Shown here: one piece after another, positions 4,796 through 58,518 of the stretch
Position numbering within the stretch: the first letter of the stretch is position 1
How the letters are laid out: the number at the start of each line of letters is the position of its first letter
Assembly (NCBI GenBank): GCA_963677705.1
Contig: OY782497.1
Location: forward strand, 4,152,627-4,216,626
Origin: Myxococcota bacterium
Lineage (GTDB): Bacteria > Myxococcota_A > SURF-8 > G963677705
Direction of reading: 5' to 3'
DNA: 64,000 nt
The notes under the pieces: model-generated
Database searches by the model: none
What the model was told of the DNA's origin: nothing
What the model saw: the letters and a program-made list of their open reading frames with translations, nothing else
Made by a program: the position numbers and the translations under genes

Positions 4796-6586
4796 ATGAA
4801 AACCAGGATGCGTTGCCAATCTGGAATGACCAAGGCGTTGTTTCTGCTCTGCGCTGTTTTCTTTGTGATGGCCTGCGATGATGGCAGGTCGAGCAACAAC
4901 CATGACGATGACGACGATGATGATGTTTCCGATGGAGATGGAATGGTTCCGGTTGATGACGACGACGATGATGATAGCTCCGATGAAGATGGAATGGTTC
5001 CGGTTGATGACGACGACGATGATGATAGCTCCGATGAAGATGGCGATGGTTTGGATGGTGACGATGATGATGATAGCTCCGATGGAGATGGAATGCTTCC
5101 GGATGATGACGATGATGATGATAGCTCCGATGGAGATGAGGACGAAGAAAGTGTCGCCACGGAAGATGGAGATGGGGAGGCAACCACTGACGGTGATGAA
5201 GATGGCGATGGTTCGGATGGTGACGAGGAATTGGACACCGACACGGATCAGTGTGAAGGCTGCCTGATTGATGATCTGTGCATCCCTGCCGGGCAGGATC
5301 ACCCGGTCTTCCTGTGTGCCCAGTGCAACCCGGAGCAAAACAATCAGGATTGGTCGCCCAAACTGCAAGGCACCGAATGCCGTCCGGCTGCGGGAATTTG
5401 TGACGTTGCCGAAGTCTGTGACGGCGTGAACGAAGATTGCCCCGCGGATGGCTTTGTCGTGGACGGCGAAATCTGCAATGATGACAACAATTGCACGGAC
5501 AATGATATGTGCTCTGGTGGCACTTGCTCCGGCCAGACGTACATTTGCAATGATCATGGAACCTGCAATAGTGACGATAATCTCTGCACTTGTACTACCG
5601 GCTACACGGGCGATTATTGTGATGCGTGCACAGATAACTACTCGGGTTATCCTGATTGCCAACGAGTTACCACCCCCGGTTTCTTGTTCATCGAGGCAGG
5701 CAGTTTCTGGATGGGATCACCGGCGGGCACCTGCCCGGAGGGGTATCCAGGCTCTTGTACGAGCGAGTTGGGTCGGAATTCGAACGAGACGCTACACTAT
5801 GTGACGCTGACCTATGACTTCGAGATGAGCCGTTACGAGATCACGGAGGCCCAGTTTGAGGGTCTGATGGGCTGGAATGCGATGGATATCTATGATTCGG
5901 ACTGCTCCAATGGCTGCGGTGACGATCATCCGATGAAGTACATAAGCTGGTATGACACACTGGCCTACGCCAACCAGTTATCGTTGGATGCGGGTTTGAC
6001 TGCCTGTTATGTGTTGTCAAATGTTGGCTGTGAAAATGGCGGTAACGTGGGAACGGACTACATGGACTGCTTCGACTCCGATGCGACGTATGGCGGTATC
6101 GATTCGGCAACGGTGATGCTTGCTGGAGATATAACGAAGCCGCAGGATTGCGAGGGCTACCGTCTGCCGACGGAGGCGGAGTGGGAGTATGCGATCCGGG
6201 CCGGAACAACGACAGCGTTTTACAATGGTGGGATTACATATACGGGGTATGATCCTGTTGATCCGAACCTGGACCAGATCGGCTGGTACTATGGGAACAG
6301 CTTCTCCTATGGCACGAAGCCCGTGGGCGGCAAGGAACCGAACGCCTGGGGCTTGTATGATATGAGTGGGAACCTGTGGGAGTGGACCTGGGACTGGTAT
6401 CAAACTGTATATCAAAACGATGTGACTACCGATCCCGTGGGACCGAGTACAGGCTCGTACCGCGTCATTCGTGGCGGCAATTGGAGCGACGTCGCGGGGG
6501 ACTGCCGGTCGGCGACCCGTAGCGGCTTCTCGCCCGGCAATCGCGACCACATCTTCGGTGCCCGTCTCTGTAGCTCTCGCCCTTGA
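4796..6586 (+). CDS. Lipoprotein: poly-Asp linker, EGF-like/Myxococcus-type Cys-rich repeats, C-terminal formylglycine-generating-enzyme (FGE-sulfatase) domain
   Basis: Signal plus lipobox LLCAVFFVMAC. Tandem 17-aa unit DGMVPVDDDDDDDSSDE repeated. EGF signature CTCTTGYTGDYC. FGE motifs RLPTEAEWEYAIRAG, GNLWEWTWDWY, RVIRGGNW. Confidence 0.75.
   Translation: MKTRMRCQSGMTKALFLLCAVFFVMACDDGRSSNNHDDDDDDDVSDGDGMVPVDDDDDDDSSDEDGMVPVDDDDDDDSSDEDGDGLDGDDDDDSSDGDGMLPDDDDDDDSSDGDEDEESVATEDGDGEATTDGDEDGDGSDGDEELDTDTDQCEGCLIDDLCIPAGQDHPVFLCAQCNPEQNNQDWSPKLQGTECRPAAGICDVAEVCDGVNEDCPADGFVVDGEICNDDNNCTDNDMCSGGTCSGQTYICNDHGTCNSDDNLCTCTTGYTGDYCDACTDNYSGYPDCQRVTTPGFLFIEAGSFWMGSPAGTCPEGYPGSCTSELGRNSNETLHYVTLTYDFEMSRYEITEAQFEGLMGWNAMDIYDSDCSNGCGDDHPMKYISWYDTLAYANQLSLDAGLTACYVLSNVGCENGGNVGTDYMDCFDSDATYGGIDSATVMLAGDITKPQDCEGYRLPTEAEWEYAIRAGTTTAFYNGGITYTGYDPVDPNLDQIGWYYGNSFSYGTKPVGGKEPNAWGLYDMSGNLWEWTWDWYQTVYQNDVTTDPVGPSTGSYRVIRGGNWSDVAGDCRSATRSGFSPGNRDHIFGARLCSSRP
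4930..5150 (+). repeat. In-frame 51-bp coding tandem repeat (about 4 copies) encoding DGMVPVDDDDDDDSSDE
   Basis: The unit gatggaatggttccggttgatgacgacgacgatgatgatagctccgatgaa recurs head-to-tail with small variations. Confidence 0.6.
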
Positions 6587-25072: not shown

Positions 25073-26884
25073 TCAGGCAACGGTCTGACGACGGCGCATT
25101 ACGGCAGCCAGACCCAGCAAGCCCATTAACAGGGTGGCCCCAAGGCCGGTTTGCGTACAGCCATCGGAACCGCCGCCATCGGCTTCTGCACCATCGGGGG
25201 CTTCGGTATCCCCATCGGTCGCCGTCCAACTATCGTCGTCATCATCGGTGAGGGAATCATCATCATCGTCGTCGGTGGCGTCATCGTCGTCGTCGGTGAC
25301 ATCTCCATCGCTCAGGTCGTCGTCGTCATCATCGCTGACTTCCTCATCGCCGTCCTCATCGCCGTCTTCATCTCCATCGGGTTCTTCGGGGCATTCCCAA
25401 ACGCAGACCTGTTCCTGGCAGGAATAGGCGCCGCCCGTGCAATCGGTCGCCGGGCTTAGGGCTTCACAATCGCTGTCCTGGGTGCAGACGCGCTCTTCGG
25501 GGCAGATCCACTGGCATTCGCTGGTTGCCGTGGCGCATTCCCAATGACCCCCGCTGCAATCGGACAGCCCTTCGCCGGTACAGTCGGCGTTGGTGGTGCA
25601 ACTCTGTTCCGGATCACAGACCCAACCGCATTCGTTGCTCAGGCATTCCCAGTGGCCATCGCAGGGAGCGGGAGGATCTCCGGAGCAGTCATTATCACTC
25701 TGGCAACTGGGGCGCACGCCCAACTCGAAGTAATCCAACACAGTGCCGTCAATTTCTTTCACCGTAAACTTCATCACGGTGTCCTGCACTTCAACCATGA
25801 TGTAGTGATAGGCTTTATGCTGGAGTTCCACTTCGTGAACGTAGAGCTGGTCCAGCAGTTCGCCATCGGGTTCTTCCAGTTCCGCACCACCGCCACCGGT
25901 GTTGATGTAGGGAAGGCCGTTCTGAGCCAGCCCGCGTTCATAGAACGCATCGTTGCCGGAAAGAAGCAGATCCACCTTGTTGACGCGGAAATCGAAAAGA
26001 AGGCCGCGAATCTCCGCCGAACCGCTTCGGCCATCCGCGCCGCTGTATGCGCCTTCGTGAGACAGCACCAGAATGTGGTCGATATTCGTGTTGGCGGCGG
26101 CATTCACCAGTTCCGTGTTCAGCCATGCCGCCTGGTTTTCATTGAGGCAGCGGGAAAGGAAAAGGATGTCCGGGCAGAGCCACTGAGGCAGGGTGTTGAC
26201 CACATCGTCAATGACGATCACATGCACGTTGGCATAGGTGAAGCTGTAGTATTCTTCGCGCCCGCTGCTCTCATGGGGAATCTCGAAGGCATCAATGAAG
26301 TTGCTGCCGGATTGGCTTTCGCCCTGGTCCGTTTTCCCGATCACCGGATAAATGGCATGGCCGCTCATCAAGGGCTCTTCAATGTCGAAGAATTCGGCCC
26401 ACTGCTCGGCATTGTCGCCTTCCGCGACCAGGTTTCCGGCGTGGATGTAGAAGTCGAAGGTTTCCGTCGCCATACGCTGCACCACCTGCCGGTGCTTTTC
26501 CGCATCGCCCTGGGTGTTGCCGAGAATAAGAAAACGGAAGGTGCTTCCGGCCAAGGGCATGGCCTTGAAGGTGGTCGTTTCGGTGATCGCGGCCCCATCC
26601 ACCCATACTTGGTAATCATAGCGACTCCCCGGCGTCAAACCTTCCAGGGTGATCCGGTGACGGAAGGCTGCCGTGCTGGAAACGCTTTGTGCCATTGCCT
26701 GCCCTTGAGGACCGTAATGGACTTCGGCGGCCAGCGCGTCATCCAGATCGAAGACGAGCATCACCGAGGTGGGAAGCATACGTTGCACAAAGGGGCCGCG
26801 GGTTACCTCAGCGGCTTGGGCCAGTGCCGAGGCACAGAGGAGGCATAAGGCCACCAGGAGGCCGGTCAGACGAGTGGGTGCCAT
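25073..26884 (-). CDS. Secreted purple-acid-phosphatase-like metallophosphatase with triplicated Cys-rich modules, a poly-Asp tract and a MYXO-CTERM-like C-terminal sorting tail
   Basis: Signal peptide, calcineurin-like motifs (GNTQGD, HAGNLVAEGD), 3x (C..DC..G..C.GGHWEC...EC.W.C.PE), then DDDDD tracts and GCTQTGLGATLLMGLLGLAAVMRRRQ. Confidence 0.65.
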   Translation of the reverse strand: MAPTRLTGLLVALCLLCASALAQAAEVTRGPFVQRMLPTSVMLVFDLDDALAAEVHYGPQGQAMAQSVSSTAAFRHRITLEGLTPGSRYDYQVWVDGAAITETTTFKAMPLAGSTFRFLILGNTQGDAEKHRQVVQRMATETFDFYIHAGNLVAEGDNAEQWAEFFDIEEPLMSGHAIYPVIGKTDQGESQSGSNFIDAFEIPHESSGREEYYSFTYANVHVIVIDDVVNTLPQWLCPDILFLSRCLNENQAAWLNTELVNAAANTNIDHILVLSHEGAYSGADGRSGSAEIRGLLFDFRVNKVDLLLSGNDAFYERGLAQNGLPYINTGGGGAELEEPDGELLDQLYVHEVELQHKAYHYIMVEVQDTVMKFTVKEIDGTVLDYFELGVRPSCQSDNDCSGDPPAPCDGHWECLSNECGWVCDPEQSCTTNADCTGEGLSDCSGGHWECATATSECQWICPEERVCTQDSDCEALSPATDCTGGAYSCQEQVCVWECPEEPDGDEDGDEDGDEEVSDDDDDDLSDGDVTDDDDDATDDDDDDSLTDDDDDSWTATDGDTEAPDGAEADGGGSDGCTQTGLGATLLMGLLGLAAVMRRRQTVA

Positions 26885-31435: not shown

Positions 31436-32626
31436 ATGATGAACGGTTCTCGGTACCCTGCTTTTACGCGACGTTTTCGTTTCCCTTTTTGTTTCCTTTT
31501 TCTTTTCCTTTCCCTCTTGGCTTACGCCTGTGATTCCGGGTCTTCCGATGTGGATTCCCAACTCGACGGCGATCTGGAGCAGGAGGAGGAAGCCTCCATA
31601 CCTCAGGAGATTCACCATTGCTTCGGGGGAAACAAGCAGGCGGATCGCTGTGAAACGGCAAGCGACTGTGAAGCAGAAAGCCGTTGTGGGGAAGCTCCCC
31701 AAGGTGTGAGTTACACCTGCTCCGAAGGTGTCTGCCGGGTAAAACCGCTTGATGGTGAAGATGGGGATGAAGACCAGGCAATGGACTACGAACAACCTGA
31801 TTGTACGGATGAACAAACGGGGCGGGCCAAGATTGATTGTCTTCCCACCTGTTGGACTGGAAATGCGACACCTAGACCCTGCAAGCTGGACTTCCATTTC
31901 AAGTACCTGGATGACGAAGGCCGTTTTGAGATCGGTCAGCCGGGGGGGTATAGGATTACGGGGATTGATGCATGGAATGGTTGGGCTGCGTTCTATTACA
32001 GTCATCTTGAGAGTGGAGAACCCACAGGGTTGATGCTATTCGATTACCCCACCAAACAAACCGCTCGCTTTTCCATCCCCGGTGATTCTTCGTTCTGGCC
32101 TTCGTTGGGCGGCAATCGACTTGCCTGGACCAAACATAACTCAGGCAGGGGGGATGATCTCTACACCACGCGCCTGGATAACTGGGAAACCCGGCTGGCA
32201 GTGGGAGTTGATACCTACATCGGCAAAACAGCGATCAGTGAGCGGGGAGTGTTCTGGGATGATGGCCGTACCGGTGAAGGGAGTGAGCGGGTCTATACGA
32301 TCAACGAGGAAACCGGAGAAGAAAAGCTCCTCAGTTCCAAGGCGATGAAGTGTTTCGATGTCTATGACAACATGCTGGTCTACCTGTTCCTGAACGATGT
32401 CTTGATGGGCTATAACCTGGACACGGGCGTAGAAGAAGCAATGATGGCCGATGAGGATTCCTACTACGCCAGAGCCAAAATGAAACTATGGGAGCGAAAG
32501 GCTTACTTTTCCAACGTCAGTCTGGCTACCACGAACCCGGATTGCAGCTATTCGGTGATGGAAGTGGACTTGGATACCAAGACCACCCGTGTGGTAGTAC
32601 CTAGGCAGTGTCGTCATGAGATATGA
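31436..32626 (+). CDS. Lipoprotein with an N-terminal Cys-rich module (paralogous to the 35496-36539 gene) and a beta-propeller/TolB-like region; 3' end abuts the IS5 element
   Basis: Lipobox LLAYAC. Module IHHCFGGNKQADRCETASDCEAESRCGEAPQGVSYTCSEGVC. Start set at MMNGSRY (31436). Confidence 0.6.
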   Translation: MMNGSRYPAFTRRFRFPFCFLFLFLSLLAYACDSGSSDVDSQLDGDLEQEEEASIPQEIHHCFGGNKQADRCETASDCEAESRCGEAPQGVSYTCSEGVCRVKPLDGEDGDEDQAMDYEQPDCTDEQTGRAKIDCLPTCWTGNATPRPCKLDFHFKYLDDEGRFEIGQPGGYRITGIDAWNGWAAFYYSHLESGEPTGLMLFDYPTKQTARFSIPGDSSFWPSLGGNRLAWTKHNSGRGDDLYTTRLDNWETRLAVGVDTYIGKTAISERGVFWDDGRTGEGSERVYTINEETGEEKLLSSKAMKCFDVYDNMLVYLFLNDVLMGYNLDTGVEEAMMADEDSYYARAKMKLWERKAYFSNVSLATTNPDCSYSVMEVDLDTKTTRVVVPRQCRHEI

Positions 32627-35299: not shown

Positions 35300-36185
35300 T
35301 TTCAACACCCTGTCAGCCCCTTCGGCTGCTGGCGAATTTACAGGCAGTTATTGGTATAGCTGTAACTCTGACAAGAGTCCGGCGTGCCGTCGCAGTCATC
35401 ATCATAGCTAGAAGTCAACCGGTTGCCGTCTTCGTCATAGGTATAGCTGTGACAAGAGTCCGGCGTGCCGTCGCAGTCTGAATCATTACGATGGCTCAAC
35501 TCATTGCCGTTTGCGTCATAGGTGCGGCTGTAACAACCGTAGTCTGCCGTGCCGTCGCAGTTATAAAGCTCAGCTCATTGCCGTTTGCGTCATAGGTATA
35601 GCTGTAACAACCACGATCCGGCGTGCCGTCGCAGTATGAATCTTCGCTAGAGCTCAACCGGTTGCCGTTTGCGTCATAGGTGGAGGTGCGACAATAGTCC
35701 GGCGTACCGTCGCAGTCATCATCTTCACGATTGCTCAACTCATTGCCGTTTGCGTCATAGGTGTAGTTGTGACAAGAGTCCGGCGTGCCGTCGCAGTCTG
35801 AATCATTACGATGGCTCAACACATTGCCGTTTTCGTCATAGGTATAGCTGTTGTAACAAGTATCCGGCGTTCCGTCGCAGTCTTCATCCCGGCTATAGCT
35901 CCTCTTATTGCCGTCTTCGTCATAGGTATAGCTGTAACAATCGGCGTCCGGCGTACCGTCGCAGTCATCATCCCGGCTGTAGCTCAACTTATTGCCGTCT
36001 TCGTCATAGGTGTAGCTATAACAACCCTCGTCCGGCGTACCGTCGCAATCATCATCTTCACGATAGCTCAACTCATTGCCGTCTTCGTCATGGGTGCGGC
36101 TGGTACAACCATGATCCGGCGTGCCGTCACAGAGCAGATCATAATAATAAACCTCAATATAACAGCCGTCGGTGGTGTCATCATC
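35300..36185 (-). repeat. About 81-bp coding tandem repeat array (YD/Rhs-like unit C-DGTPD-xxCYSYTYDxxGNxLSxxxDDD), 10 or more copies, extending past the annotated stop
   Basis: The repeat continues from 36185 down to about 35335, although the ORF stops at 35496. Confidence 0.65.
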
Positions 36186-36539
36186 ATCATCGTCATCTGC
36201 TGTGTCGCCGTCGGTAGTGTCATCATCATCGTCGCTGGAGGTGTCTCCGTCTGCGCTGGCTTCGCCTTCGCTGTTGCAAACACCGTCGGTGCAACTGTAA
36301 CTCACACCGTCGGGAGCTTCTCCGCAGCGGCTTTCCGTTTCACAATCCGCCGCCGTTTCGCAACTGTCTCCTTGCTTGTTTCCTTCATAGCAATGGTGAA
36401 TCTTCTGAGGCAGGTAATCTTCTTGCTCTGCTTGGTCAAAATCGCCGTCAGCCTGAATCAAGACTAGCGAACCGGAGTCGCCACAGGCAACAAAAACCAA
36501 CATAGATAGCAAAATAAAACTATTCATGATATAATTCAC
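35496..36539 (-). CDS. YD-repeat lipoprotein with poly-Asp linker and N-terminal Cys-rich module; probably frameshifted (repeats continue in another frame to about 35335)
   Basis: Lipobox LVFVAC. Module IHHCYEGNKQGDSCETAADCETESRCGEAPDGVSYSCTDGVC, paralogous to the 31436 gene. The alternative frame after about 35500 translates to further CDGTPD..YTYDxDGN repeats ending ...SYSYTNNCL. Confidence 0.6.
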   Translation of the reverse strand: MNYIMNSFILLSMLVFVACGDSGSLVLIQADGDFDQAEQEDYLPQKIHHCYEGNKQGDSCETAADCETESRCGEAPDGVSYSCTDGVCNSEGEASADGDTSSDDDDDTTDGDTADDDDDDDTTDGCYIEVYYYDLLCDGTPDHGCTSRTHDEDGNELSYREDDDCDGTPDEGCYSYTYDEDGNKLSYSRDDDCDGTPDADCYSYTYDEDGNKRSYSRDEDCDGTPDTCYNSYTYDENGNVLSHRNDSDCDGTPDSCHNYTYDANGNELSNREDDDCDGTPDYCRTSTYDANGNRLSSSEDSYCDGTPDRGCYSYTYDANGNELSFITATARQTTVVTAAPMTQTAMS

Positions 36540-39619: not shown

Positions 39620-39649
39620 CGGGTAGGATGCAGGCCGCTTGTTGCCTGT

Positions 39650-39860: not shown

Positions 39861-39951
39861 CCGGCTGGATCCTCCGCCTGCGCGGAGGATGACGATTCTT
39901 AAGCTCGGTTATAATCGCCGGGTTATTGCAACAAGATCAAAGGATGAACTC

Positions 39952-40596: not shown

Positions 40597-40599
40597 TGG

Positions 40600-40735
40600 T
40601 AGGAAGGCCCGAAGAGGAGCCTTCAACAATCGTAGTCGGGCAAATTCCTTGCCCGACACGTCTTGCACACAAGCCCTTGCCCCTCACTGGGATGCCTTTC
40701 GGTAGCCTGTCTCTTGTGAGAGGGAGAAGGGCTTC
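40600..40735. repeat. Repeat cluster (ccttcaacaatcgtagtcgggcaaattccttgcccgac plus cccctcactgggatgcctttcggtagcctgtctcttgtgagagggag)
   Basis: The first half matches 39690-39740. The second half matches 3308-3355. Confidence 0.5.
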
Positions 40736-40895
40736 CGAATAGCCGATTAAGGCTCATCCTTTCCTTCTTTTCTGACGATCCATGCTTGCCAGGTTTCCAC
40801 CGTGGAGTATACTCGGCCCACGGTGGCGTTGTGGTTTGTTGGTCTGTTGAATTCCTGTTGTCCGCTACCACGGTAGGTTTTTTGCCTACGAAGGA

Positions 40896-41813: not shown

Positions 41814-42053
41814 ATCGGCTCGAACCGATTCCTCTTCGATGAATCACTCGCCAGGAGTATCTGCGGGGTATACCCTGCCGTAGGGCGGTGGTTCGAGGGC
41901 ATCTCGACTTCCTGCCCGATGGGGGGCTTTCATGAGAATGGATTACCCCTGAGATCATCAAAACCTCTTCTTCACAATTTCCTAGCTCTATGCTAATGGG
42001 TGTGTTTCGTAGGCAAACAATGTGGTTGAGTGCGTTCATGCTGGAGAAACACA

Positions 42054-43094
42054 ATGAAAACGCGACGTAGTCTTGGTTTGGTGCTGCTGGCTTGTCTGGT
42101 CTTTACGCTGGCTCTTTCGGCTTGTTCGGAAGATTCAGACGATGATTCCACCGTGGATGGAGACGACTCCCAGTCTGACGGGGATGATCCCAGTGACGAT
42201 GACGATGACGAGGAGGATGGCGACGAAGAGCAAGCCGATCCGGACGCCCTTGAACTGACCGTGATGACGTACAATATTCTCTGCTACTTCTGCGACACGG
42301 TGAACTACGATCCTTGGGAAGATCGCATCGGCTACCACCGTGAAACCTTTGTGCGGCACAATCCGGACCTGATCGGCATTCAGGAACTGTTTCAGTTGGA
42401 GGATCTGGACCAACTGCTGGAACCCAACCCGGAGTATGAAGCGATTTATTACGTGGATGATGGGGAGGGGATTTTTGATACCTATACCGACGCTGCGATT
42501 TTCTACAAGAAAGACCGCTTTGACGTGGTGGAAACCGGGTTTTACTGGCTGAGCGACGATCCGGATACGCCCTTCACCGGCTTCAGTTCCGAGGAAGAGC
42601 AGGGCAGCCGGAAAGCCTCTGCCTTCTGGCGTATGGTTGCCTGGGCCGTGTTTACCGACCGCGCAAGCGGAAAAGACTTCTATTTTTCAACGACCCACTT
42701 TGACAACAACACCCCGCATCAAGAGCAGAGCGCTCCCATTGCCTTGTCTTACATTCAACCCTATGCGGAACGGATGCCCGTGGTCTTCGTGGGGGATTAC
42801 AACTCCAAGCCGGATACCATCGCCTACGGCTTGTTAACCGAAGGGGTGGAGGGCTCGGACTTCTCTCTGGTGAACAGCTTCGATCTCGCCGAGCAATGGT
42901 CCGTGTCCTCCAATCTGGAACCCACGCCGGAATATGACCCGAACGATCGCATTGACCATATCTTCCTGCAAGGCCCATCCGATTGGACGGTTTCCTCCTG
43001 GGTGGTGGATATGACCAGCTACGGAGAGTCAGGCCGTTATGCCTCGGACCATTTCGCAATGATTGCTACGCTGCGCTACGCCTTGGATGAGTGA
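42054..43094 (+). CDS. Lipoprotein with poly-Asp/Ser linker and endonuclease/exonuclease/phosphatase (EEP) domain
   Basis: Lipobox LALSAC followed by SEDSDDDSTVDGDDSQSDGDDPSDDDDDEEDGDEE. EEP motifs LTVMTYNI ... GIQE ... SDHFAMIATL. Confidence 0.7.
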   Translation: MKTRRSLGLVLLACLVFTLALSACSEDSDDDSTVDGDDSQSDGDDPSDDDDDEEDGDEEQADPDALELTVMTYNILCYFCDTVNYDPWEDRIGYHRETFVRHNPDLIGIQELFQLEDLDQLLEPNPEYEAIYYVDDGEGIFDTYTDAAIFYKKDRFDVVETGFYWLSDDPDTPFTGFSSEEEQGSRKASAFWRMVAWAVFTDRASGKDFYFSTTHFDNNTPHQEQSAPIALSYIQPYAERMPVVFVGDYNSKPDTIAYGLLTEGVEGSDFSLVNSFDLAEQWSVSSNLEPTPEYDPNDRIDHIFLQGPSDWTVSSWVVDMTSYGESGRYASDHFAMIATLRYALDE

Positions 43095-43126
43095 ATCTCT
43101 GTCTGAATCCTGATTCCGAAATCATG

Positions 43127-43167
43127 GCCCGAATGGAAAGAAACGCCTTTCCATCGGGCTTTTTTGC
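43127..43167 (+). terminator. Rho-independent terminator after the EEP lipoprotein gene
   Basis: gcccgaatggaaag-aaacg-cctttccatcgggc followed by tttttt. Confidence 0.55.
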
Positions 43168-43291
43168 ATCATGCGGGATGTTGCCATTCCAGGCTTGAGG
43201 TGGTATCCTCCGCAGGATTTTTCGCGCCCTGTTTTCCTGGAGTGGAGTCAGGGATGTTCATGCTTCTTTAGGTAACGTTCGAGGTCTGCCG

Positions 43292-45916
43292 ATGAAGTCA
43301 CCGCGCCTGTGGCAATCTTTCACGGATTGGTATACCAAGCTTTCCTTCCGTCATCCTTTTCTGATTCTGGGTATCTTTCTACTCTTGACTGTTGCCGGGG
43401 TGTTTATCTCCAAAGGGCATATCAAGATCGTGACCAACCTGGCCGCTCTGCTTCCCGAAGGAACGCCCAGTGTTCTGGCCTTGGATGAAAGCAAGAAACG
43501 CATCGGTTCCACGGATTTCTTCACCATCGCCATCAAGAGCGAAACCAACAGCGCCCATGCCATTGCCAAGATGCAGGATCTGCTGAAAGAGCGCATCGAA
43601 AAGGAATGGGATGATGCTGACTGGGTGCAGGTGGGCCGGGATACCTCCTTCTTCCATAGCCATGCCTTGTATTACCTGCCGGTCAACGAACTGCTCGACC
43701 TTCGCGACACCCTGCAAATGGAGTTGGTCAAGGCCAGCGCCAAGAAGGGTTTCACCGTCAACCTGATGGGCGATGACGACGACGACGATGACGATGATGG
43801 CATTGACAAATGGTATGATGAAGAACTTCCCCGGCGCTTGGGCCTTCCGCCCCAGGTGCAAAAGGAGTTCAACAGCTTCTTTGCCGCACGAGAGAAAAAA
43901 GAAGGGGATACGGACGGTCTCCCCCGTGAGTTGAGCCACCGCCTGATCGGTCCCAAAGGTGATGTCGGTGTGATTTTCGTACAATTGGCCAAGCCCAGCA
44001 CAGACTTGGAATACGCGGAAAAAGTATTGCTTCGCGGGGAAAAGCTGATTGCGGAGATCAACCCCAAGAGCATTGACCCAAGCCTCATTGCCCAGGTTGT
44101 CGGTGCTTACCGCAGCTTTATGGAAGTGGATGCCGTGTCCAAAGACGGCACCGTGGCCACCAGCATCAGCCTGGTCTTGATCCTCTTCATGATGTTCATT
44201 TTCTTCCGTAGCTTCCGCACCATCGTGGTGGTCGTTGTTCCGCTGCTTACTGCCGCTGCGGTGACGATGGCGGTCACGGCGGGGGTTTACGGGCGCCTGA
44301 CGGTGCTGACCGTGTTTATTCTGGCGCTCCTGGCGGGGATGGGTATTGACTACGGGATTCACCTGTTCGGGCGCGTGATTCAGGATTTCCGTGGTGGACG
44401 CAGCGTGGAAGACAGTGTGCATCAAAGCTTGCTGCATACGGGCCGCGCCTTGTTCGCCGCAGCGGGAACCACCATCGCCAGCTTCCTGACCTTGCAGGCC
44501 GGACACTTCCAAGGCTTCAAGGAGTTCGGCATCGTCGCCAGCTACGGCCTGTTCATTGCCGTTCTGGCCAGTTTCCTGGGTATTCCTCCTCTGGTGGCGA
44601 TGATGGAACGCATCCGCCCCCTGACGCGCTCGGAGAAGGAACTGAAACAGAGCGAAAAAGATCCGGACAAATTCTTGGGTACCTCAGCCCGCAAGCTTGC
44701 CTTCTATGGATTTGTCATTTCTGCCGTGGTTACGGTGGGGCTTTCCGTGTTCATGCCCCGCGCCATGTTTGAATATGATTTCCGTAACCTGCGCGCACCC
44801 AGCACCGGAGCGACCATCGGCTACGGTCGCGCCATCGGTAAAGACGCCAGCAGCACCCCGGCGGTGATGTTGGCCAAAGATATGAAGCAGGTGGAGGCCG
44901 CCCACGAATTTCTGCGCAACAAATTGAGCGTGGAAAAAGACCCGATGCTCAAGAGCTTCATCACCTATTACACCTTTGTTCCCCAGGCCAAGAAGCAGGA
45001 AACGCGGCAGATGGTCATCGGTGAGATCGGTGACATTGTCAAAAAAGAAGCCATGCGCAAACTGACCGGCGAGAAAAAACGCATGATTGACGAGTTGTTA
45101 CTCATGGTGGATGCCAAACCCTTCACGGAAAAAGACCTGCCGGATTGGGCCTTGAAGGTGGTCACCGAGCGTGACGGCACGGTCGGTCGCGTGGGCCATA
45201 TGTACGGTCATGTCGAAAAATGGAATGCCAACAGCGTGCGGGATTATCAAGACCGCTTCGGCTATCTGTTCTTCAAGAATGACGGCACGGTTTCTCACGG
45301 AACCGACGAGGAAGCCAAATTGAGCCTACAGGGCAAAGATACGGGCAAAGGCACCTGGCTGCCCATCGCCTCCAGCAACTTCATTTTGTCTGATGTGGTC
45401 AAGATGGTGCAGGAAGATGGTGAGATCCTGGCCGTATTCGTCTCTCTGGTGTTGTTGGTGATTCTGCTCCTGTATTCCCGCAGTGTGGTGGGAATGATGC
45501 TGCTGATGGCCGTAACCGGCTCCATCGTTATCTGGACGGTGGGTATCATGGGCCTGTTTGATATTCGTATCGGCCTGTACAACCTGATTACCATTCCCGT
45601 CATCCTGGGTGTGGGTATTGATGGCGCGATTCACATGTTCCACCGCTACCTGGAGTTGGGACCGCAGCAGTTGGGTAAAGCGATGCGTACCACGGGCTTG
45701 TCGATCACGGCCTCGTCGTTTACCACCATTGCCGGTTTCTTCGGGCTGATCTTCGTGGCTCACAAGGGCTTGCGCACCATCGGCGTGCTGGCTTCCATCG
45801 GTATTCTGTTGGCCTGGATGGCCAGTGTGGTGCTGCTTCCCTGGTTGATGGCCCGTTTCGTGAAAACGGAGAACACCACGAAGTCAGAGACTGAGGTGGA
45901 AAAAGAAAACGCCTAG
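43292..45916 (+). CDS. MMPL/RND-superfamily exporter (COG1033-like, two SSD/MMPL halves) with a poly-Asp insertion in the first periplasmic domain
   Basis: 874 aa with 2 x 6 TM. LALLAGMGIDYGIH and ITIPVILGVGIDGAIH motifs typical of MMPL. DDDDDDDDDG at about 43780. Confidence 0.75.
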   Translation: MKSPRLWQSFTDWYTKLSFRHPFLILGIFLLLTVAGVFISKGHIKIVTNLAALLPEGTPSVLALDESKKRIGSTDFFTIAIKSETNSAHAIAKMQDLLKERIEKEWDDADWVQVGRDTSFFHSHALYYLPVNELLDLRDTLQMELVKASAKKGFTVNLMGDDDDDDDDDGIDKWYDEELPRRLGLPPQVQKEFNSFFAAREKKEGDTDGLPRELSHRLIGPKGDVGVIFVQLAKPSTDLEYAEKVLLRGEKLIAEINPKSIDPSLIAQVVGAYRSFMEVDAVSKDGTVATSISLVLILFMMFIFFRSFRTIVVVVVPLLTAAAVTMAVTAGVYGRLTVLTVFILALLAGMGIDYGIHLFGRVIQDFRGGRSVEDSVHQSLLHTGRALFAAAGTTIASFLTLQAGHFQGFKEFGIVASYGLFIAVLASFLGIPPLVAMMERIRPLTRSEKELKQSEKDPDKFLGTSARKLAFYGFVISAVVTVGLSVFMPRAMFEYDFRNLRAPSTGATIGYGRAIGKDASSTPAVMLAKDMKQVEAAHEFLRNKLSVEKDPMLKSFITYYTFVPQAKKQETRQMVIGEIGDIVKKEAMRKLTGEKKRMIDELLLMVDAKPFTEKDLPDWALKVVTERDGTVGRVGHMYGHVEKWNANSVRDYQDRFGYLFFKNDGTVSHGTDEEAKLSLQGKDTGKGTWLPIASSNFILSDVVKMVQEDGEILAVFVSLVLLVILLLYSRSVVGMMLLMAVTGSIVIWTVGIMGLFDIRIGLYNLITIPVILGVGIDGAIHMFHRYLELGPQQLGKAMRTTGLSITASSFTTIAGFFGLIFVAHKGLRTIGVLASIGILLAWMASVVLLPWLMARFVKTENTTKSETEVEKENA

Positions 45917-45961
45917 TCATGGCGCATCCGTGACAAGAAGACCGAGCGATCCGTAACGAAG

Positions 45962-46030: not shown

Positions 46031-46666
46031 CTATTCTTCGGTGAAGGGAATCACACAGCTTGTGGTATCCAGGCAATCCATGAAGGAATCACAGGCGTCT
46101 TCGTTCAGGCAATCGGCAAGGTTGTTGAACCCGTCGGAGGTCATCATACCGCCCAAGCTCAAACAGAAGCCATCCATGTCACTTTCAAAGCCGGAGACAT
46201 CGGTGATGTCCTGGCACAATTCCAGACCTTTGCTGGCCAGATCGGCACAGGTGGCTTCCACATCGCTCCCCACCTGTGTGTTGGTCAGCACTTCCTGCAT
46301 ACAAGGAGCGACGATTTGCCCATCGGTGCAGACCTCGCCGCCCAGGCAATCTTGAAAGGCGTTGGCAAACTCATCGTTCCATTCCCAGGTCAGCAGGCGG
46401 CAACTCTCAACGCAGTTGTTGTCACCTTCGCAGGCTTCGATCACTTCGCAGGCTCCTTCGCAGATACCACTATAGTCCGAGGCCTCTTCGGTTTCACGGC
46501 TGGCACAGATCTGCTCGAAGCTCTGGTCGGTGTTGTTGTCATCGTCGTCATCGTCACCGTTGTCGTCACCGCCGCTACCATCATCATCGTCGCCACAACC
46601 ACTGACGAAAGCCACAGACAGACCCAGCAGAACAATCAGAATAAACAGACTCGGTTTGAATTTCAT
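46031..46666 (-). CDS. Cys-rich lipoprotein with poly-Asp linker (unknown function)
   Basis: Lipobox AFVSGC then GDDDDGSGGDDNGDDDDDDNN. About 20 Cys in the mature domain. Confidence 0.55.
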   Translation of the reverse strand: MKFKPSLFILIVLLGLSVAFVSGCGDDDDGSGGDDNGDDDDDDNNTDQSFEQICASRETEEASDYSGICEGACEVIEACEGDNNCVESCRLLTWEWNDEFANAFQDCLGGEVCTDGQIVAPCMQEVLTNTQVGSDVEATCADLASKGLELCQDITDVSGFESDMDGFCLSLGGMMTSDGFNNLADCLNEDACDSFMDCLDTTSCVIPFTEE

Positions 46667-48809: not shown

Positions 48810-51539
48810 TCAGTCTTTCTTGGCTTGCAGTATCTCCAGGGCAATGGTCAGGGCTTTCGAGGCTTTCACGCGCATTTCTTCGTCATGCTTGATGCGATGG
48901 AAGGCTTTCACCACACGCTCTTCATTCTGGGCGTTGGTGCCGTGCAGGGCTTCCAGTTCCTCTTCCAACTCCGCCAGACGTTGTTCGTATTGCTGGCCGA
49001 TCTCTTCAAGCTGCTGTTGTAGGTCTTCGCGGTCTTTCTCTAAAACCTCCAGGTCTTTTTCCCACTGCGCCACGGTGGTCTTGGCCGCTTGCAGATCCTC
49101 TTTGGCTTTGACCTTTTCATTGTTGGCCTGTTGCAGGTCTGCCTGGGTCGTCGCGAGGGTTTCCTCACGCTGTTTGAGGGTTTCTTCCTGTTGACGAAGC
49201 TTCTCGTTCAATCCGGCCAGTTGCGCAGCCTGATCGTCCAAGAGTTTGTTGGCGTCACTGAGATCCTTGCTTTGTTTCTGGTGGGTGCTTTCCAACTCAG
49301 TCAACTTGCTTTGAGCTTCCGTGGCCTGAGTTTTGGCCAGGTCGCTTTCGTCACGCAAGGTGCCCAGTTCCTCTTTGGAGGCTTGAAGTAGGGTGGTTTT
49401 GGTTTCCAGATCCTGCTTCGTCTGCTCAAGCTGAGCGGTCAGTTCTTCGATGTTTTCATCTTTTTCATCCAACTCAGCATCTTTCAGGGCCAACTTGCTG
49501 TTGGTTTCGTTCAGTTGAGCTTCTTTGTCGGCGAGCGCTTGCTGTATGTTGGCCGCTTCATGGTTTCGCGTCTGGATGCTCTGTTCCAACTCGGTAATCT
49601 GGGCGCGCAAAGCCTCTACCGTCTGGGCCTGCTCGCCGGATTGGTTCTGCGCCGTCGTCAGTTGTTGGCGGGTCTGCTCGTGGTTACGACGTTCCTCATC
49701 CAAGGCGGCTTCCAGCTCGCTTCGTTCGGCTTGTTGGGCATCAAGAGTGCTGTGAAGTTCTTCCAGTTCGCTGTCTTTTTGTTGAATCTGGGCGTTGAGG
49801 GTCGAGAGTTCCTTTTCACGATCCCCCAGGCTTTTCGCCTGTTCCTGGCTTTCATTGAGCTTTTGCGTGTAGCGCTTGCTGAGCTTCTCGAAGCTCAGTT
49901 TTTTATCTTCCAGGGTTTTGCGCAGTTTTTCCAGTTCGCCTTCCAACTCGTTCTCACGCAGGGTCAGGGCTTGCTGTTTTTCCTCTACGCGACGACGGGC
50001 GGCCTGCTCCTGTTCGTCCAACTCCTGTTGCAGGGCGCTAACCTGGTTTTCCAGTTCGGCCAGGGTGCTGTCTTTCTGGCCCAACTGCGACTGCAAGCCT
50101 TCAAGAGTCTGTTGGTGTTGTTCTTGGGCTTGGGTCTTGGCGTTTTCAACAACGGTCAATTGGTTCTTCAAGTCCTCCATGCGTTGGGCTAAGGCATCCA
50201 TCTCAGCCTGCTTCCGTCGGAGAAGTTCGTCTTTTTCGTTGAGCGCTTCACTCCATTCCCCTTGTTGTCGTTCCTGGTCGCTTTGCTGGCGCTGCTGGGA
50301 GTTCTGCAACTCCTCGTTTTGCTGACGCAGGGTGCTTGCCTGGTGCTGGGTCTGCTGAAGCTCCTCGCTTGTTTTGTTGAGTTCCTGTTCCAGACGGGTG
50401 AACCGTTCTTCAAGCGAGGCTAGGTTTTGATCGGTTTCATTCTTCTGGGCCGTCAGTTCAGAAAGCTTGGATTGCAACTCATTGTGATTCTGGGTGAGGG
50501 TCTGAAGCTCCTCGCGGGTGCGAGCCAACTCATCTTCCCTGCCGGCCAGTTCCTGCTTGAGTTGAAGCCCCTGGGCAGAGAGTGTCTGGCGTTCATCGGC
50601 CAGTTTCTGCAATTGCGCTTCCACCTCGCCGATGCGTGCTGCGTCCCGTTCAGCCTGTTTTTGCAGGGTGGAACGCTCTTTTTCCACCACATCCAGGCGG
50701 GCTTTGGTTTCGTTCAGTTCGTCGGTCAGCCTGGCCTTGGCCTGGGAAAGCTCTTCTTTCTCCCGTTCGCGTTTGAACAGCAGTTGTTTCATCCGCTGGG
50801 TTTCCGCGTTGCCGCCCCCGGAAGAAGGCACGGGAATCTCGGATTGCCGCAGGCCGGATTGCTCGGCGGGAGGCACCTGGTATTCTTCACTCAATTCCCC
50901 CAGAACGTCGTCCATTGCGTCATCCATGTTGGGGAATCCCAGGTCGTCGTCATCATCGAGGGGAGAAGCCTGGGTTGAGCTTGGCGTCCCGGCCAACAAA
51001 CTGTCGATGTCATCCATCGGTGGCGCGGCGACCGTCTGGCTTGGGATCTCGTCGGCAAAGTCTTCCGTTGGGATGGGGTACTCGTCCGTGGAAGGTTCGG
51101 CCAGCATGTCATCCAACATATCCACTTCGCTGGTGGGAACCGCAGGAGGATGAGCATCGGCAGCCCAACCCAGCATGGAGGCCAATTCCTGGTAGAGTTC
51201 ATCCGGTTGGAAAGGCTTGTGGTAATAGAGGTCCGCGTGTTTTCTGAGCTTCTGGTGCTTCTGGAAGGTTTCCGGTGGCACGTTGGCTCCGACGATCACG
51301 CTGCTTGCCTGGCCTAAGACCGGGTCGTGCTTGATCGCTTTGAACAAGGCGAAGCCGCTGGTATCGGCCAGTTGCACGTCAATGACAAAGGCATCGGGCA
51401 GCCATTGCCTTGCAGCACTTAAGGCAGCCTCGGCGTTGTCGACAAAATGGATTTCACAGCCGCGCTCATTGGTCAGAAACTCTGCCAGGGTTTGCGCGAA
51501 GGAAATGTCACCATCAGCGATGAGGATTTTCTGAGACAT
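48810..51539 (-). CDS. FrzS/AglZ-like protein: N-terminal receiver domain plus a coiled-coil of about 750 aa
   Basis: Receiver ILIADGDISFAQTL...DAFVIDVQLADTSGF...KP. The remainder is heptad-rich (QQLEE..., ELEEL...), Gln/Glu/Leu-biased. Confidence 0.7.
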   Translation of the reverse strand: MSQKILIADGDISFAQTLAEFLTNERGCEIHFVDNAEAALSAARQWLPDAFVIDVQLADTSGFALFKAIKHDPVLGQASSVIVGANVPPETFQKHQKLRKHADLYYHKPFQPDELYQELASMLGWAADAHPPAVPTSEVDMLDDMLAEPSTDEYPIPTEDFADEIPSQTVAAPPMDDIDSLLAGTPSSTQASPLDDDDDLGFPNMDDAMDDVLGELSEEYQVPPAEQSGLRQSEIPVPSSGGGNAETQRMKQLLFKREREKEELSQAKARLTDELNETKARLDVVEKERSTLQKQAERDAARIGEVEAQLQKLADERQTLSAQGLQLKQELAGREDELARTREELQTLTQNHNELQSKLSELTAQKNETDQNLASLEERFTRLEQELNKTSEELQQTQHQASTLRQQNEELQNSQQRQQSDQERQQGEWSEALNEKDELLRRKQAEMDALAQRMEDLKNQLTVVENAKTQAQEQHQQTLEGLQSQLGQKDSTLAELENQVSALQQELDEQEQAARRRVEEKQQALTLRENELEGELEKLRKTLEDKKLSFEKLSKRYTQKLNESQEQAKSLGDREKELSTLNAQIQQKDSELEELHSTLDAQQAERSELEAALDEERRNHEQTRQQLTTAQNQSGEQAQTVEALRAQITELEQSIQTRNHEAANIQQALADKEAQLNETNSKLALKDAELDEKDENIEELTAQLEQTKQDLETKTTLLQASKEELGTLRDESDLAKTQATEAQSKLTELESTHQKQSKDLSDANKLLDDQAAQLAGLNEKLRQQEETLKQREETLATTQADLQQANNEKVKAKEDLQAAKTTVAQWEKDLEVLEKDREDLQQQLEEIGQQYEQRLAELEEELEALHGTNAQNEERVVKAFHRIKHDEEMRVKASKALTIALEILQAKKD

Positions 51540-56079: not shown

Positions 56080-58518
56080 ATGGTCCGTCAATCCTTCGGC
56101 CTGATACTGGCTCTGTTTCTTTTGCTTCTGCTCCTCGTTGCCTGTTCTTCATCCAGTGAGGGTGACCCGGACCCGGATGGGGATACAAGCGATGGAGATA
56201 ACCCGACAGACGACGATGACGACGACGACGATGATGATGACACCCTGGATGGAGATACCGAGGAAGATGGCGATGAGCCGAACCCCCTCGTTCCGCGAGA
56301 TCCGCCGGCTTTCGCCAACCCGCTGATGGATGAACCCTATCTTCAGGAGTTCAACCATACCAGCAACGAGGTGGAAGCGGGCCTGGAAAACCTGGTGTCC
56401 GTACTGCTGCCTCCGGCAGACTTCACCACCTTTGATGAACCGACTCAAATTACCCCACGCGGCGTGGTACGTCACACCACCGAAGGAAACGTTGAGGTAC
56501 TTTCCATTCTGGAAGCCGAGGCCGACCTTGTCGCTGCGGCAACCAATGCGGATACAATCTTCCTTGTCTCTGGAACCACGGTTTATACCGTCAACGCCGA
56601 AGGCACCGTGCAAAGCCTGGCCGCACTCCCCGACGCTTGCCAGACACCGGGGCTTTCCAACGGTAGCGCGCAGGCTTACCTGTTCTGTGAAAGCGGACTC
56701 TACCTGCTCAGCGCGGACGCCCTGACGCCGGTGGACTTCATCAACCAGGCCGTCACGGCGGTTACCGAAAGCCTCAACGGCTTGTATATCGCCGGTGAGG
56801 GGTTCGTCAGCCTGTACGATCCCTCCGATTCCACCACCCAAGCCACGTGGAGCCTTGGCACCAACGATAACCTCCCCGACGCACCGGTAGTCGCCGTGCT
56901 GGAAAATCTCAGTCTGCCGGAAGCCTTGGATCTGGTCGTTGTTACAACAACCCAGACCGTGGGTGTTCGCCTCAGGGATGGACAGGCCAGCGTGCTGACA
57001 GACATCGAAGCCTTCCAAAGCGACCGCATTCCGCTGATGCCCGTTCGTGGTGCGACGAAAACCGGCGACGGCGGATTCATTCTCTATACCGCCGAAGGCG
57101 GAGCCTGCCGGATTATGGAACGTGGTCACGGCCCGGAATGGCGTGTGTACAACTGGGAGCGTTGGCTGCCTAACGAGAACGTTCGTGCCGTGGTAACCCC
57201 GGCGGACAGTGACACCGCACCCATCTGGTTTGCCACCGCCGGAGGTCTGGCGACCGTGACCGCCCAACGGATGACTCTGCAAGAAAAAATGGCTTTGTTT
57301 GACGAACGCCTGGAATTGCGTCACGACCGCGACGGAGCGGTGGCCGACAGCCGCTTGAGCGTCAAAGGAGATTTGTCCACCAGCGTTCCCTATGACAGTG
57401 ACAACGACGGCGGCTGGACCTGCTATCAAGTCTTGGCTCAGTGCTATCAATACCGCACCACCGGGGACGAACGGGCCAAGCAACGCTTTGACAAAGCCTT
57501 GGACGCCATGCTCAACCTGCATGACCTTACCGGTACGGACTATTTCCTGGGCCGTTCGGTGATCCGCAAAGAAGGCTGCCAGTTGGATGACTGCGACAAC
57601 CCCGATGATGGCGAGTGGTTCACCAGCCCCGATGGAGAATGGTGGGTCAAGGCCGACACCAGCAACGATGAAGTGACCAGCCACATGTTCATGATGGGCC
57701 CGGCCTATGATCTTTGCGCCGATGACGAGCAGAAAGAGCGCATTCGTCGCCATGTGGGAGACATCATCGGCGGTATCGTGGAGAACAACTACCAATTGGT
57801 AGACCTGGATGGCGAAGTCACCACGTATGGACAACTCGGTCCTGATTACGTCAACGATAGCATTCAGGGGCAGTTCGGAGATGGCGGAAGGCGCAGTGCG
57901 CAGATGATCGCCAACCTGAACCTCGCCTATTACCTCACCGGCGAACAGCGCTTTGCCGATGCCAAAGCGGATCTTTTGGATAACCATCATTATGCAGAGA
58001 ACATCCTTGGTGAAGCGGATTATCCCTTCCGTGCCGGTCATGGCAGCAATGACGGCAATGAACTGGTCACCCAGGCGTACATGATCCTCTTGCGCTATGA
58101 GCAGGATAACGAACTGTACGAAACCTGGAAAGACGCCTGGGCCAACAGCTATAGCTATATGCGTCCCCAGCAAGCCAGCCTGTGGGATGTGGCCAACGCC
58201 ATCCTGGACGGGCCGGAGCCGGATATGGCGATGACCCGCCGTTGGCAACGTCTGGCCCCGGTGGATATGATTCGCTGGACCGTGCACAATGGCCACCGTC
58301 AAGACCTGGCCGAGCCGACGGAATATTATCAGGATCTGGGCTTCATTCGCACGGATGGCTTCATTCTTCCCTACGATGAGCGTCCCTGTGACCGCTTCAA
58401 CCAAAGTCAGCTCAACTATGACGGCGGGAACAACGGTATGAAGGAAATGGATGGTGCCGAGGCGCTTTCCACCTACTGGATGGCCCGTTACTACCAGTTG
58501 ATCGTACCGGCGGAATAA
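56080..58518 (+). CDS. Large lipoprotein (812 aa) with poly-Asp linker; unknown function
   Basis: Lipobox LLLLLVAC, then SSSSEGDPDPDGDTSDGDNPTDDDDDDDDDDDTLDGDTEEDGDE. The antisense ORF 56149-58722 is a shadow. Confidence 0.6.
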   Translation: MVRQSFGLILALFLLLLLLVACSSSSEGDPDPDGDTSDGDNPTDDDDDDDDDDDTLDGDTEEDGDEPNPLVPRDPPAFANPLMDEPYLQEFNHTSNEVEAGLENLVSVLLPPADFTTFDEPTQITPRGVVRHTTEGNVEVLSILEAEADLVAAATNADTIFLVSGTTVYTVNAEGTVQSLAALPDACQTPGLSNGSAQAYLFCESGLYLLSADALTPVDFINQAVTAVTESLNGLYIAGEGFVSLYDPSDSTTQATWSLGTNDNLPDAPVVAVLENLSLPEALDLVVVTTTQTVGVRLRDGQASVLTDIEAFQSDRIPLMPVRGATKTGDGGFILYTAEGGACRIMERGHGPEWRVYNWERWLPNENVRAVVTPADSDTAPIWFATAGGLATVTAQRMTLQEKMALFDERLELRHDRDGAVADSRLSVKGDLSTSVPYDSDNDGGWTCYQVLAQCYQYRTTGDERAKQRFDKALDAMLNLHDLTGTDYFLGRSVIRKEGCQLDDCDNPDDGEWFTSPDGEWWVKADTSNDEVTSHMFMMGPAYDLCADDEQKERIRRHVGDIIGGIVENNYQLVDLDGEVTTYGQLGPDYVNDSIQGQFGDGGRRSAQMIANLNLAYYLTGEQRFADAKADLLDNHHYAENILGEADYPFRAGHGSNDGNELVTQAYMILLRYEQDNELYETWKDAWANSYSYMRPQQASLWDVANAILDGPEPDMAMTRRWQRLAPVDMIRWTVHNGHRQDLAEPTEYYQDLGFIRTDGFILPYDERPCDRFNQSQLNYDGGNNGMKEMDGAEALSTYWMARYYQLIVPAE

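Follow-up and report, generated by a model that had tools for sequence, protein, structure and literature searches.

Aspartate-rich tracts in exported proteins were analysed in a 64-kb stretch of Myxococcota DNA (contig OY782497.1, positions 4,152,627–4,216,626 of the forward strand, referred to as the window) and in pieces of about 20 kb from related genomes. With moderate confidence, we consider these tracts to be anchor-proximal, intrinsically disordered, polyanionic spacers that separate the folded domain from its membrane anchor. The feature is best filed as real, statistically supported and lineage-accentuated, and as a compositional variant of the known disordered linkers of lipoproteins and other anchored proteins. 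An earlier reading of the window (the original prediction) had described six unrelated lipoprotein genes, named here by their position in the window (4796, 31436, 35496, 42054, 46031 and 56080), as carriers of a poly-Asp tether that might serve surface display, Ca2+ binding or sorting.

Each of the six translated open reading frames (ORFs) begins with a hydrophobic leader that terminates at a lipobox Cys, as predicted. A PS51257-like rule, [LIVMFWSTAG](2)-[LIVMFYSTAGCQ]-[AGS]-C with six uncharged positions ahead of it and a Cys between residues 15 and 35, was satisfied by all six, the Cys being residue 27, 32, 19, 24, 24 and 22, respectively. Lys or Arg was present among the first seven residues (n-region) of five; 35496 (VNYIMNSF...) lacks it and has the weakest signal peptide of the six. 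The acidic residue claimed at +2/+3 was found in five proteins and was absent from 56080, which opens C-SSSSE. The Asp-rich tract said to follow the Cys directly was confirmed in four proteins: runs of at least four Asp (D≥4) stand immediately behind the Cys only in 4796, 42054, 46031 and 56080, the runs of 35496 come after a Cys knot, and 31436 has no run. The longest run comprises 11 Asp (D11, in 56080), as had been counted. Pfam agreed with the proposed functional domains, with FGE-sulfatase in 4796, a weak DUF5050 match in 31436, RHS/YD in 35496, Exo_endo_phos in 42054 (the endonuclease/exonuclease/phosphatase, or EEP, protein) and no match in 46031 or 56080. The six proteins proved not to be mutually unrelated, however. 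The first 84 residues of 31436 and 35496, covering signal, linker and knot, are homologous (58% identical, E = 3e-28), and because of this common N-terminal module the window holds five independent N-termini rather than six.

The tracts of the window contain up to 47% Asp and almost no Lys or Arg, and their net charge ranges from -6 to -68. The tripeptide DGD was observed 25 times, as compared with 8.8 expected from composition-preserving shuffles (about 2.8-fold, P < 5e-5), and its spacing in the window proteins is irregular. The Asp runs are encoded by mixed GAT and GAC codons.

The distribution of the tracts was evaluated by two counts. In a curated list of 48 window genes, Asp-rich tracts (at least 9 Asp in 20 residues) were present in 5 of 7 lipoproteins and in 3 of the 41 other genes (Fisher p = 6e-4), and the products of two of these three also lie outside the cytoplasm. 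In a scan of all six frames, 16 of the 17 D≥4 runs were extracytoplasmic, located in lipoproteins, in the C-terminal part of a metallophosphatase or in the first large loop of an MMPL transporter. Within the window, these counts speak against the concern that such tracts might occur equally in cytoplasmic proteins. In addition, a lipobox precedes only 1 of 85 arbitrary D9-coding stretches from metagenomes, indicating that poly-Asp in general is not tied to lipoboxes.

Both of the tracts that had been noted away from a lipobox were recovered. In the metallophosphatase, the Asp runs lie at 25232–25333, ahead of a tripartite C-terminus (...GGGSDGC-TQTGLGATLLMGLLGLAAVM-RRRQTVA), and the protein starts with a signal peptide ending in AQA. 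This C-terminus scored 17.8 bits against the MYXO-CTERM model TIGR03901 (E = 0.0033, profile positions 2–33 of 34), just under the cut-off of 20, and it also matched a myxosortase-dependent phytase-like model. The homologue search with this protein was swamped by poly-Asp words and gave one match. A homologue, P0206 (39% identical), has kept the DGD linkers and ends in GGGDGC...IWIVLLLPALLAG-RRRIFR. The loop that carries the D9 run of the transporter would lie on the periplasmic side according to the established RND/MMPL topology. Moreover, DGD linkers join DUF1566 domains in L005, a locus from a related genome.

The predicted structures are consistent with a disordered tether. AlphaFold models were built on the family alignments of the EEP protein (mean predicted local distance difference test score, pLDDT, 88.6) and the 56080 protein (89.9). 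Residues 23–65 of the EEP protein showed pLDDT values of 50–62 and its tether no secondary structure, with the folded domain beginning at residue 66, and residues 22–68 of the 56080 protein fell below 50. DSSP assigned coil throughout the tracts of both models, and the adjoining domains exceeded 90. The low pLDDT of the tracts, the lack of any Pfam match to them and their extracytoplasmic confinement thus uphold the disordered acidic tether of the original prediction.

Two families were available for comparison, the EEP family (81 matches) and the family of the 56080 protein (125 matches), of which the window proteins are the members P0082 (identical) and P0086 (100% identity, full length), respectively. 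The 46031 protein (46031–46666, 211 aa) had no homologue except itself among 1.84 billion representatives and, being an orphan, provided no third family. In nearly all full-length members of both families, a lipobox leads into a linker whose length varies greatly (8–92 aa, median 45, for EEP; 0–108 aa, median 24, for the 56080 family). Pooled linkers of the two families contain 17–21% Asp, 8–10% Glu and 14% Gly, with Lys and Arg together below 2%. Among linkers of at least 25 aa, the net charge was -5 or lower in 33 of 34 (EEP) and 41 of 44 (56080 family), and D≥4 runs were rare (4 of 34 and 1 of 44, respectively). Position +2 is mostly Gly or Ser in both families, and +3/+4 is often Asp. In the closest orthologue pairs, the tethers were 51–59% identical with many gaps, as compared with 72–79% for the domains; DGD units could be aligned across orthologues, and the D11 run is missing from the nearest orthologue of 56080 (68% identity). 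Tract length and sequence thus drift fast, through indels and repeat duplication, with negative charge and DGD kept.

In the relatives' loci, DGD-rich tethers mark a subgroup of Myxococcota metagenome-assembled genomes (MAGs) with a GC content of 50–61%; L016, for example, has ten PDGDD units. Linkers rich in Ser, Thr, Gly, Ala and Glu are found instead in high-GC Nannocystaceae and Polyangiaceae. At locus L082, from another organism whose EEP protein belongs to a subfamily further removed (about 42% identity), two of five lipoproteins carry CGDDDDDD-type tethers, and the OmpA-family and DUF4398 lipoproteins have no tether. These comparisons place the tracts within a continuum of acidic lipoprotein linkers that extends across Myxococcota, and the poly-Asp runs are, to judge from the sequences, a recent exaggeration of the DGD-rich linkers of close Myxococcota relatives. 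The proposed lineage specificity therefore holds for the DGD-rich form, which belongs to the 50–61% GC subgroup, and does not extend to acidic linkers as such, which are Myxococcota-wide, or to poly-Asp, which is also present in L082.

Two further observations were made at these loci. L005 (OZ223209.1, a Myxococcota MAG) encodes at 11650–12285 (- strand) a lipoprotein that is little more than about 30 tandem x-DGD-x pentapeptides (VDGDT, TDGDM and the like) behind C-DDDDD, in effect a tether lacking a domain. In L082, a metallophosphatase (11058–12446, + strand) and a putative SGNH-like protein (15689–16717, - strand) have long poly-Asp tails that end in ...DDDDDNGCGC and ...DDDDDDGACCG at the stop codon, with no transmembrane helix; these tails may represent a different Cys-based motif for C-terminal anchoring or processing.

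The carriers in the window are EEP, FGE-domain, YD-repeat and propeller proteins and the metallophosphatase, and those in the relatives include GH5, GH39-like, CotH and C45-like proteins. Lipoproteins without a tether at the same loci are OmpA-family, Omp85/POTRA, DUF4398 and DUF192 proteins. The folded parts of the carriers are themselves acidic, with -7 to -20 net charges per 100 aa and, in most, at most 1.8% Lys. Two Sec-dependent, probably periplasmic proteins (6865 and an SLT/TPR protein) are near-neutral, and the median of the cytoplasmic proteins is -0.8 per 100 aa, so that a halophile-style acidic proteome was rejected. The acidic, Lys-poor folded parts fit a distinct outward-facing class of proteins, in what is a small sample.

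We propose that these tracts act as spacers that consist of Asp, contain repeated x-DGD-x units and are nearly free of Lys and Arg. They would adjoin an anchor, which is a lipidated Cys at the N-terminus or a MYXO-CTERM-like Cys with its helix at the C-terminus, and would occasionally lie between extracytoplasmic domains. The charge may extend the chain and repel it from an anionic membrane or lipopolysaccharide (LPS) surface, and hydrolytic and binding domains would thereby be held off the cell surface. The linker probably also aids export and trafficking, as disordered linkers do for the Lol pathway in E. coli, and the tract is probably loaded with Ca2+ or Mg2+. The carriers are probably enzymes of the cell surface or the extracellular space, not periplasmic housekeeping lipoproteins.

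Several points weigh against this proposal. A pure spacer leaves the preference for Asp over Glu, Ser and Thr in the subgroup unexplained, and high-GC relatives do use Ser, Thr, Gly, Ala and Glu. About 20 proteins, half of them lacking a Pfam match, underlie the division into tethered enzymes and untethered housekeeping proteins. The DGD excess could stem in part from duplication of DNA units containing GAY-GGN-GAY instead of selection. One Asp run in the window, a D5 in a response-regulator/coiled-coil protein, is cytoplasmic, the only such case. The evidence comes from one 64-kb window and pieces of relatives with ORF-based gene calls, and a greedy longest-ORF census of the relatives was discarded as unreliable since opposite-strand ORFs displace real genes.

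A sorting signal encoded in the acidic stretch, analogous to the lipoprotein export signal (LES) of Bacteroidota, the +2 Asp of pullulanase or the ND(N/D) motif of Acinetobacter type II secretion system (T2SS) substrates, appears doubtful. Three N-termini do look LES-like (C-SEDSD in 42054, C-GDDDD in 46031 and C-DDG in 4796). However, proteins with at least two acidic residues at +2 to +6 make up only 3 of 6 in the window, 32 of 54 among the EEP homologues and 28 of 90 among those of 56080. The 56080 protein itself opens C-SSSS, and some orthologues in both families have almost no linker. Within single loci, only a subset of the lipoproteins, mostly hydrolases, has the tract, as a sorting signal would predict, and T2SS-dependent surface lipoproteins with GGG or ND(N/D) at P2'–P4' exist in A. 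baumannii (PMC12802150). A further point for sorting is that none of the six lipoproteins carries Lys at +2, the inner-membrane mark of M. xanthus; against it, replacement of the +7 Ala of FibA by Asp in that species blocked export to the matrix (PMC3222651). The MYXO-CTERM class is surface-sorted with T2SS involvement, and the presence of a tract in a MYXO-CTERM-like protein can be counted in favour of sorting; yet a signal only a few residues long leaves tracts of 40–125 aa unexplained, as it does their C-terminal, inter-domain and MMPL-loop sites. The LES-like signal of the original prediction is therefore unsupported, because acidity at +2 to +6 is inconsistent, there is no fixed position, and the tract also adjoins a C-terminal anchor, joins domains and occupies a membrane-protein loop. 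It is also unlikely that the DGD/poly-Asp tract as a whole is a mark, read by composition, for surface or vesicle display of lipidated and MYXO-CTERM-anchored proteins, possibly bridged by Ca2+ to the outer-membrane surface, in this Myxococcota subgroup and perhaps in other lineages (L082). Such a mark would resemble the LES as a code for export or retention, but would lie outside Bacteroidota and be readable at either protein terminus.

Ca2+ is bound by DxDxDG-type loops and thrombospondin (TSP) type-3 repeats, and the tract may be viewed as a divalent-cation device in which DGD or DxD binds Ca2+, Mg2+ or mineral surfaces. Such a device could make the tether stiffer, link it with LPS or exopolysaccharide, or act as a metal buffer for attached metallo-enzymes. 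The excess of DGD, which persists in orthologues and relatives, the extreme charge density (-68 over 125 aa) and the metal-dependent carriers (EEP, metallophosphatase, FGE domain) point in this direction. Nevertheless, we regard it as quite unlikely: the tracts are predicted to be unstructured, DGD spacing has no regular register, and Pfam searches with five isolated tether or DGD-repeat sequences recovered neither TSP_3, EF-hand or RTX nor any further family at E ≤ 10. Membership in the TSP type 3, EF-hand/DxDxDG and RTX classes was rejected on these grounds. Furthermore, cation binding alone would not demonstrate a function, because any polyaspartate binds cations non-specifically. Neutral drift, in which slippage and duplication of GAY-rich DNA are tolerated in unconstrained segments, would account for the tandem DNA repeats beneath two tracts (51 bp × 4.8 and 42 bp × 2.1), the wide variation in length, the loss of D11 from the closest orthologue and the D5 run in a cytoplasmic protein. 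It does not account for the strong restriction of the tracts to exported segments, for a charge that is nearly always negative with Lys and Arg excluded in about 80 long linkers from many lineages, for DGD units that are enriched and alignable between orthologues, or for mixed GAT/GAC coding, which differs from pure microsatellites. Three tracts also have the same length in a sister strain (ENA ERZ21831104 ctg97512l), a point of little weight since this contig is near-identical over window positions 36140–53094 (3 mismatches and one 4-bp indel at the alignment boundary) and, with 3 single-nucleotide polymorphisms in 17 kb, uninformative on tether length polymorphism. Given compartment restriction, invariant charge sign and motif persistence, neutral drift is very unlikely.

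The feature bears on how diderm bacteria beyond Proteobacteria and Bacteroidota choose their outward-facing lipoproteins, and Myxococcota secrete large arsenals of surface hydrolases. The signature of a lipobox or MYXO-CTERM, a DGD/Asp-rich disordered tract and a Lys-poor acidic domain could cheaply predict the surface and exo-proteome of uncultured Myxococcota. Tether swaps would offer a handle on whether charge, length or cation binding controls display. Even if the tracts are only spacers, they are useful for annotation, as they indicate domain boundaries and plausible start codons and account for the swamping of homology searches by low-complexity words. High importance would follow only if a sorting or cation-dependent function of the tracts were shown.

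Table 1. Asp-rich tracts, anchors and adjoining features in the window.
Feature	Position	Strand	Details
FGE-sulfatase-domain lipoprotein (4796), signal peptide and lipobox	4796..4876	+	lipobox FVMAC; mature N-terminus C-DDGRSSNNHDDDDDDD...
FGE lipoprotein tether, 125 aa	4877..5251	+	59 D, five D5–D7 runs, nine DGD, net charge -68
Metallophosphatase (25073–26884, Sec-secreted), MYXO-CTERM-like anchor	25076..25162	-	GC motif, hydrophobic helix, RRRQTVA tail
Metallophosphatase, C-terminal Asp-rich spacer	25160..25390	-	aa 499–575, 35 D, five DGD
DUF5050-like propeller lipoprotein (31436), signal peptide and lipobox	31436..31531	+	lipobox LAYAC; mature N-terminus C-DSGSSDVDSQLDGDLEQEEE...
31436 short acidic linker, 29 aa	31532..31618	+	5 D, 5 E, one DGD, no Asp run
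31436 Cys-rich knot	31613–31744		followed by second short acidic linker, 31742–31801
YD-repeat protein, second linker (Cys knot to YD repeats)	36165..36275	-	aa 89–125, D5 and D7 runs, two DGD
YD-repeat protein, first linker, 30 aa	36393..36482	-	mildly acidic, one DGD
YD/RHS-repeat lipoprotein (35496), signal peptide and lipobox	36483..36539	-	lipobox VFVAC; n-region without K/R; mature N-terminus C-GDSGSLVLIQADGDFDQAEQED...
EEP lipoprotein (42054), signal peptide MKTRRSLGLVLLACLVFTLALSAC	42054..42125	+	lipobox ALSAC, Cys 24; K/R in n-region; modelled helix residues 5–22; mature N-terminus C-SEDSDDDSTVDGDDSQSDGDDPSDDDDDEEDGDEE...
EEP acidic tether, aa 25–67	42126..42254	+	19 D, 6 E, no K/R, three DGD, one D5 run
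EEP catalytic domain	42255..43094	+	PF03372, E = 5.8e-9; pLDDT >90
MMPL/RND transporter, D9 run	43772..43798	+	first large loop, between hydrophobic segments aa 17–47 and aa 285–333
46031 tether GDDDDGSGGDDNGDDDDDDNNTDQSFEQI	46508..46594	-	13 D in 29 aa
Orphan Cys-rich lipoprotein (46031), signal peptide and lipobox	46595..46666	-	lipobox FVSGC; mature N-terminus C-GDDDDGSGGDDNGDDDDDD...
Cytoplasmic response-regulator/coiled-coil protein, D5 run	50943..50957	-	control, outside the feature
812-aa lipoprotein (56080), signal peptide and lipobox	56080..56145	+	lipobox LLVAC; modelled helix residues 2–20; mature N-terminus C-SSSSEGDPDPDGDTSDGDNPTDDDDDDDDDDDTLDGD...
56080 tether, aa 23–76	56146..56307	+	D11 run 56209–56241, four DGD, net charge -25

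The GC content of the window is 54–57% and its gene content is that of an ordinary chromosome (PrmA, EF-Ts-like and RpsB-like ORFs, RpoN-like, RmlD, HPr kinase, sulfatase, MMPL and insertion sequence (IS) elements). Named homologues of the window proteins and the best genome matches come from Myxococcota, Myxococcales or 'Deltaproteobacteria' MAGs. Loci in the relatives were inspected by eye, and the lipobox regular expression misses variants.

The cassette common to 31436–31744 and 36267–36539 consists of a signal peptide, a short acidic linker and a Cys-rich knot of about 44 aa (consensus HHC..GNKQxDxCETAxDCExESRCGEAPxGVSYxCxxGVC). The two lipoprotein genes, DUF5050-like and YD-repeat, flank two IS elements, a DDE_Tnp_1 at 32614–33099 and an IS110 at 34193–35146. 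This arrangement of homologous cassettes suggests domain shuffling onto a common export module. The YD-repeat gene is built of tandem 84/165-bp repeats, and its product, 347 aa in the window and 375 aa in the sister strain, is thus a hypervariable repeat protein. Its second linker is built from the 42-bp repeat (2.1 copies) and part of the 4877..5251 tether from the 51-bp repeat (4.8 copies). Apart from differing IS content just upstream, the YD-repeat region (35356–36140 vs. 3127–4083 of L001) is alone within the aligned stretch in diverging strongly from the sister strain. One of the three substitutions in 17 kb falls in codon 22 of the EEP gene (42117–42119), the lipobox being ALSAC here and ALLAC in that strain.

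The 56080–58518 product, which has no Pfam match, was modelled as a beta-propeller (residues 82–398) followed by a large alpha-helical domain (400–812), and it has many invariant Asp, Glu, Arg, Trp and Cys residues. Foldseek matched this structure only to generic beta-propellers. Except for one partial match labelled Burkholderiaceae, every named family member derives from a Myxococcota-type MAG. In addition, a 64-bp repeat resembling repetitive extragenic palindromic (REP) elements occurs at 31333–31396 and 39786–39849 (89% identity), with the hairpin ATTCCCGC-GAAG-GCGGGAAT. Both copies lie just upstream of lipoprotein genes (31436 and 39889/39952) and translate as spurious 'IPAKAGIQ' and 'FAGMTK' peptides. 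The lipobox of the Lcl_C/DUF1566 protein at 39952–40596 (LGQVSC) is doubtful, and the protein has neither a basic n-region nor an acidic tether.

Literature searches found no description of poly-Asp or acidic lipoprotein tethers like these, and the tracts were compared with several known systems. Spacers ahead of C-terminal sorting tags (LPXTG, PEP-CTERM, PGF-CTERM, MYXO-CTERM) are usually rich in Ser, Thr, Pro and Gly. In Borrelia, an unstructured segment after the lipidated Cys of surface lipoproteins influences or accompanies surface display, and haloarchaeal lipoproteins have acidic Asp/Gly-rich linkers after the lipobox. These two are leads only, from lineages and envelope architectures that differ from those of the window organism. 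The metallophosphatase and P0206 share an Asp-rich/DGD spacer, a Cys motif, a helix and an Arg-rich tail, and thereby resemble MYXO-CTERM proteins, a class of cell-surface adhesins and hydrolases on which myxosortase acts and in which the T2SS is involved (PMC11980579); the differences are the score just below the model cut-off and the poly-Asp nature of the spacer.

The LES of Bacteroidota is read as K-(D/E)2, SDDDD in B. fragilis or CS(D/E)2 in B. thetaiotaomicron, at fixed positions +2 to +6 (PMC5080379, PMC6222051). The acidic residues just after the +1 Cys and the mostly outward-facing hydrolases are a likeness, and 42054 (C-SED) and 46031 (C-GDDDD) would fit. However, the LES is short, fixed in position and from another phylum. 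The window tracts span 30–125 aa, are not conserved in position and also occur away from N-termini, X-(D/E)2 was found in only 22 of 54 EEP and 11 of 90 56080 family members, and the closest relatives of the window proteins are from Myxococcota MAGs. The surface lipoproteins of the T2SS (pullulanase with +2 Asp; A. baumannii) are Gly/Ser- or Asn/Asp-rich after the Cys, and the resemblance of the window proteins is suggestive. In A. baumannii, GGG or ND(N/D) at P2'–P4', within about 4–8 residues, is necessary but not sufficient (PMC12802150), and the window proteins have DDG, DSG, GDS, SED, GDD and SSS at P2'–P4'. M. xanthus lipoproteins follow rules other than these T2SS motifs, with Lys at +2 marking the inner membrane and Ala at +7 the extracellular matrix (PMC3222651).

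The closest parallel to a spacer is provided by the disordered N-terminal linkers on about half of the E. coli outer-membrane lipoproteins; efficient Lol trafficking requires these linkers, and their length counts while their sequence does not (10.1101/2021.01.05.425367). The linkers of RcsF, Pal and NlpD described in that study are likewise disordered and stand after the lipidated Cys, ahead of the folded domain, and the window tracts are similarly loosely retained in length and poorly conserved in sequence. In contrast, the window tracts reach 47% Asp, Asp runs of 11 and 125 aa, contain DGD and almost no Lys or Arg, and tracts of this type are also found at C-terminal anchors and between domains.

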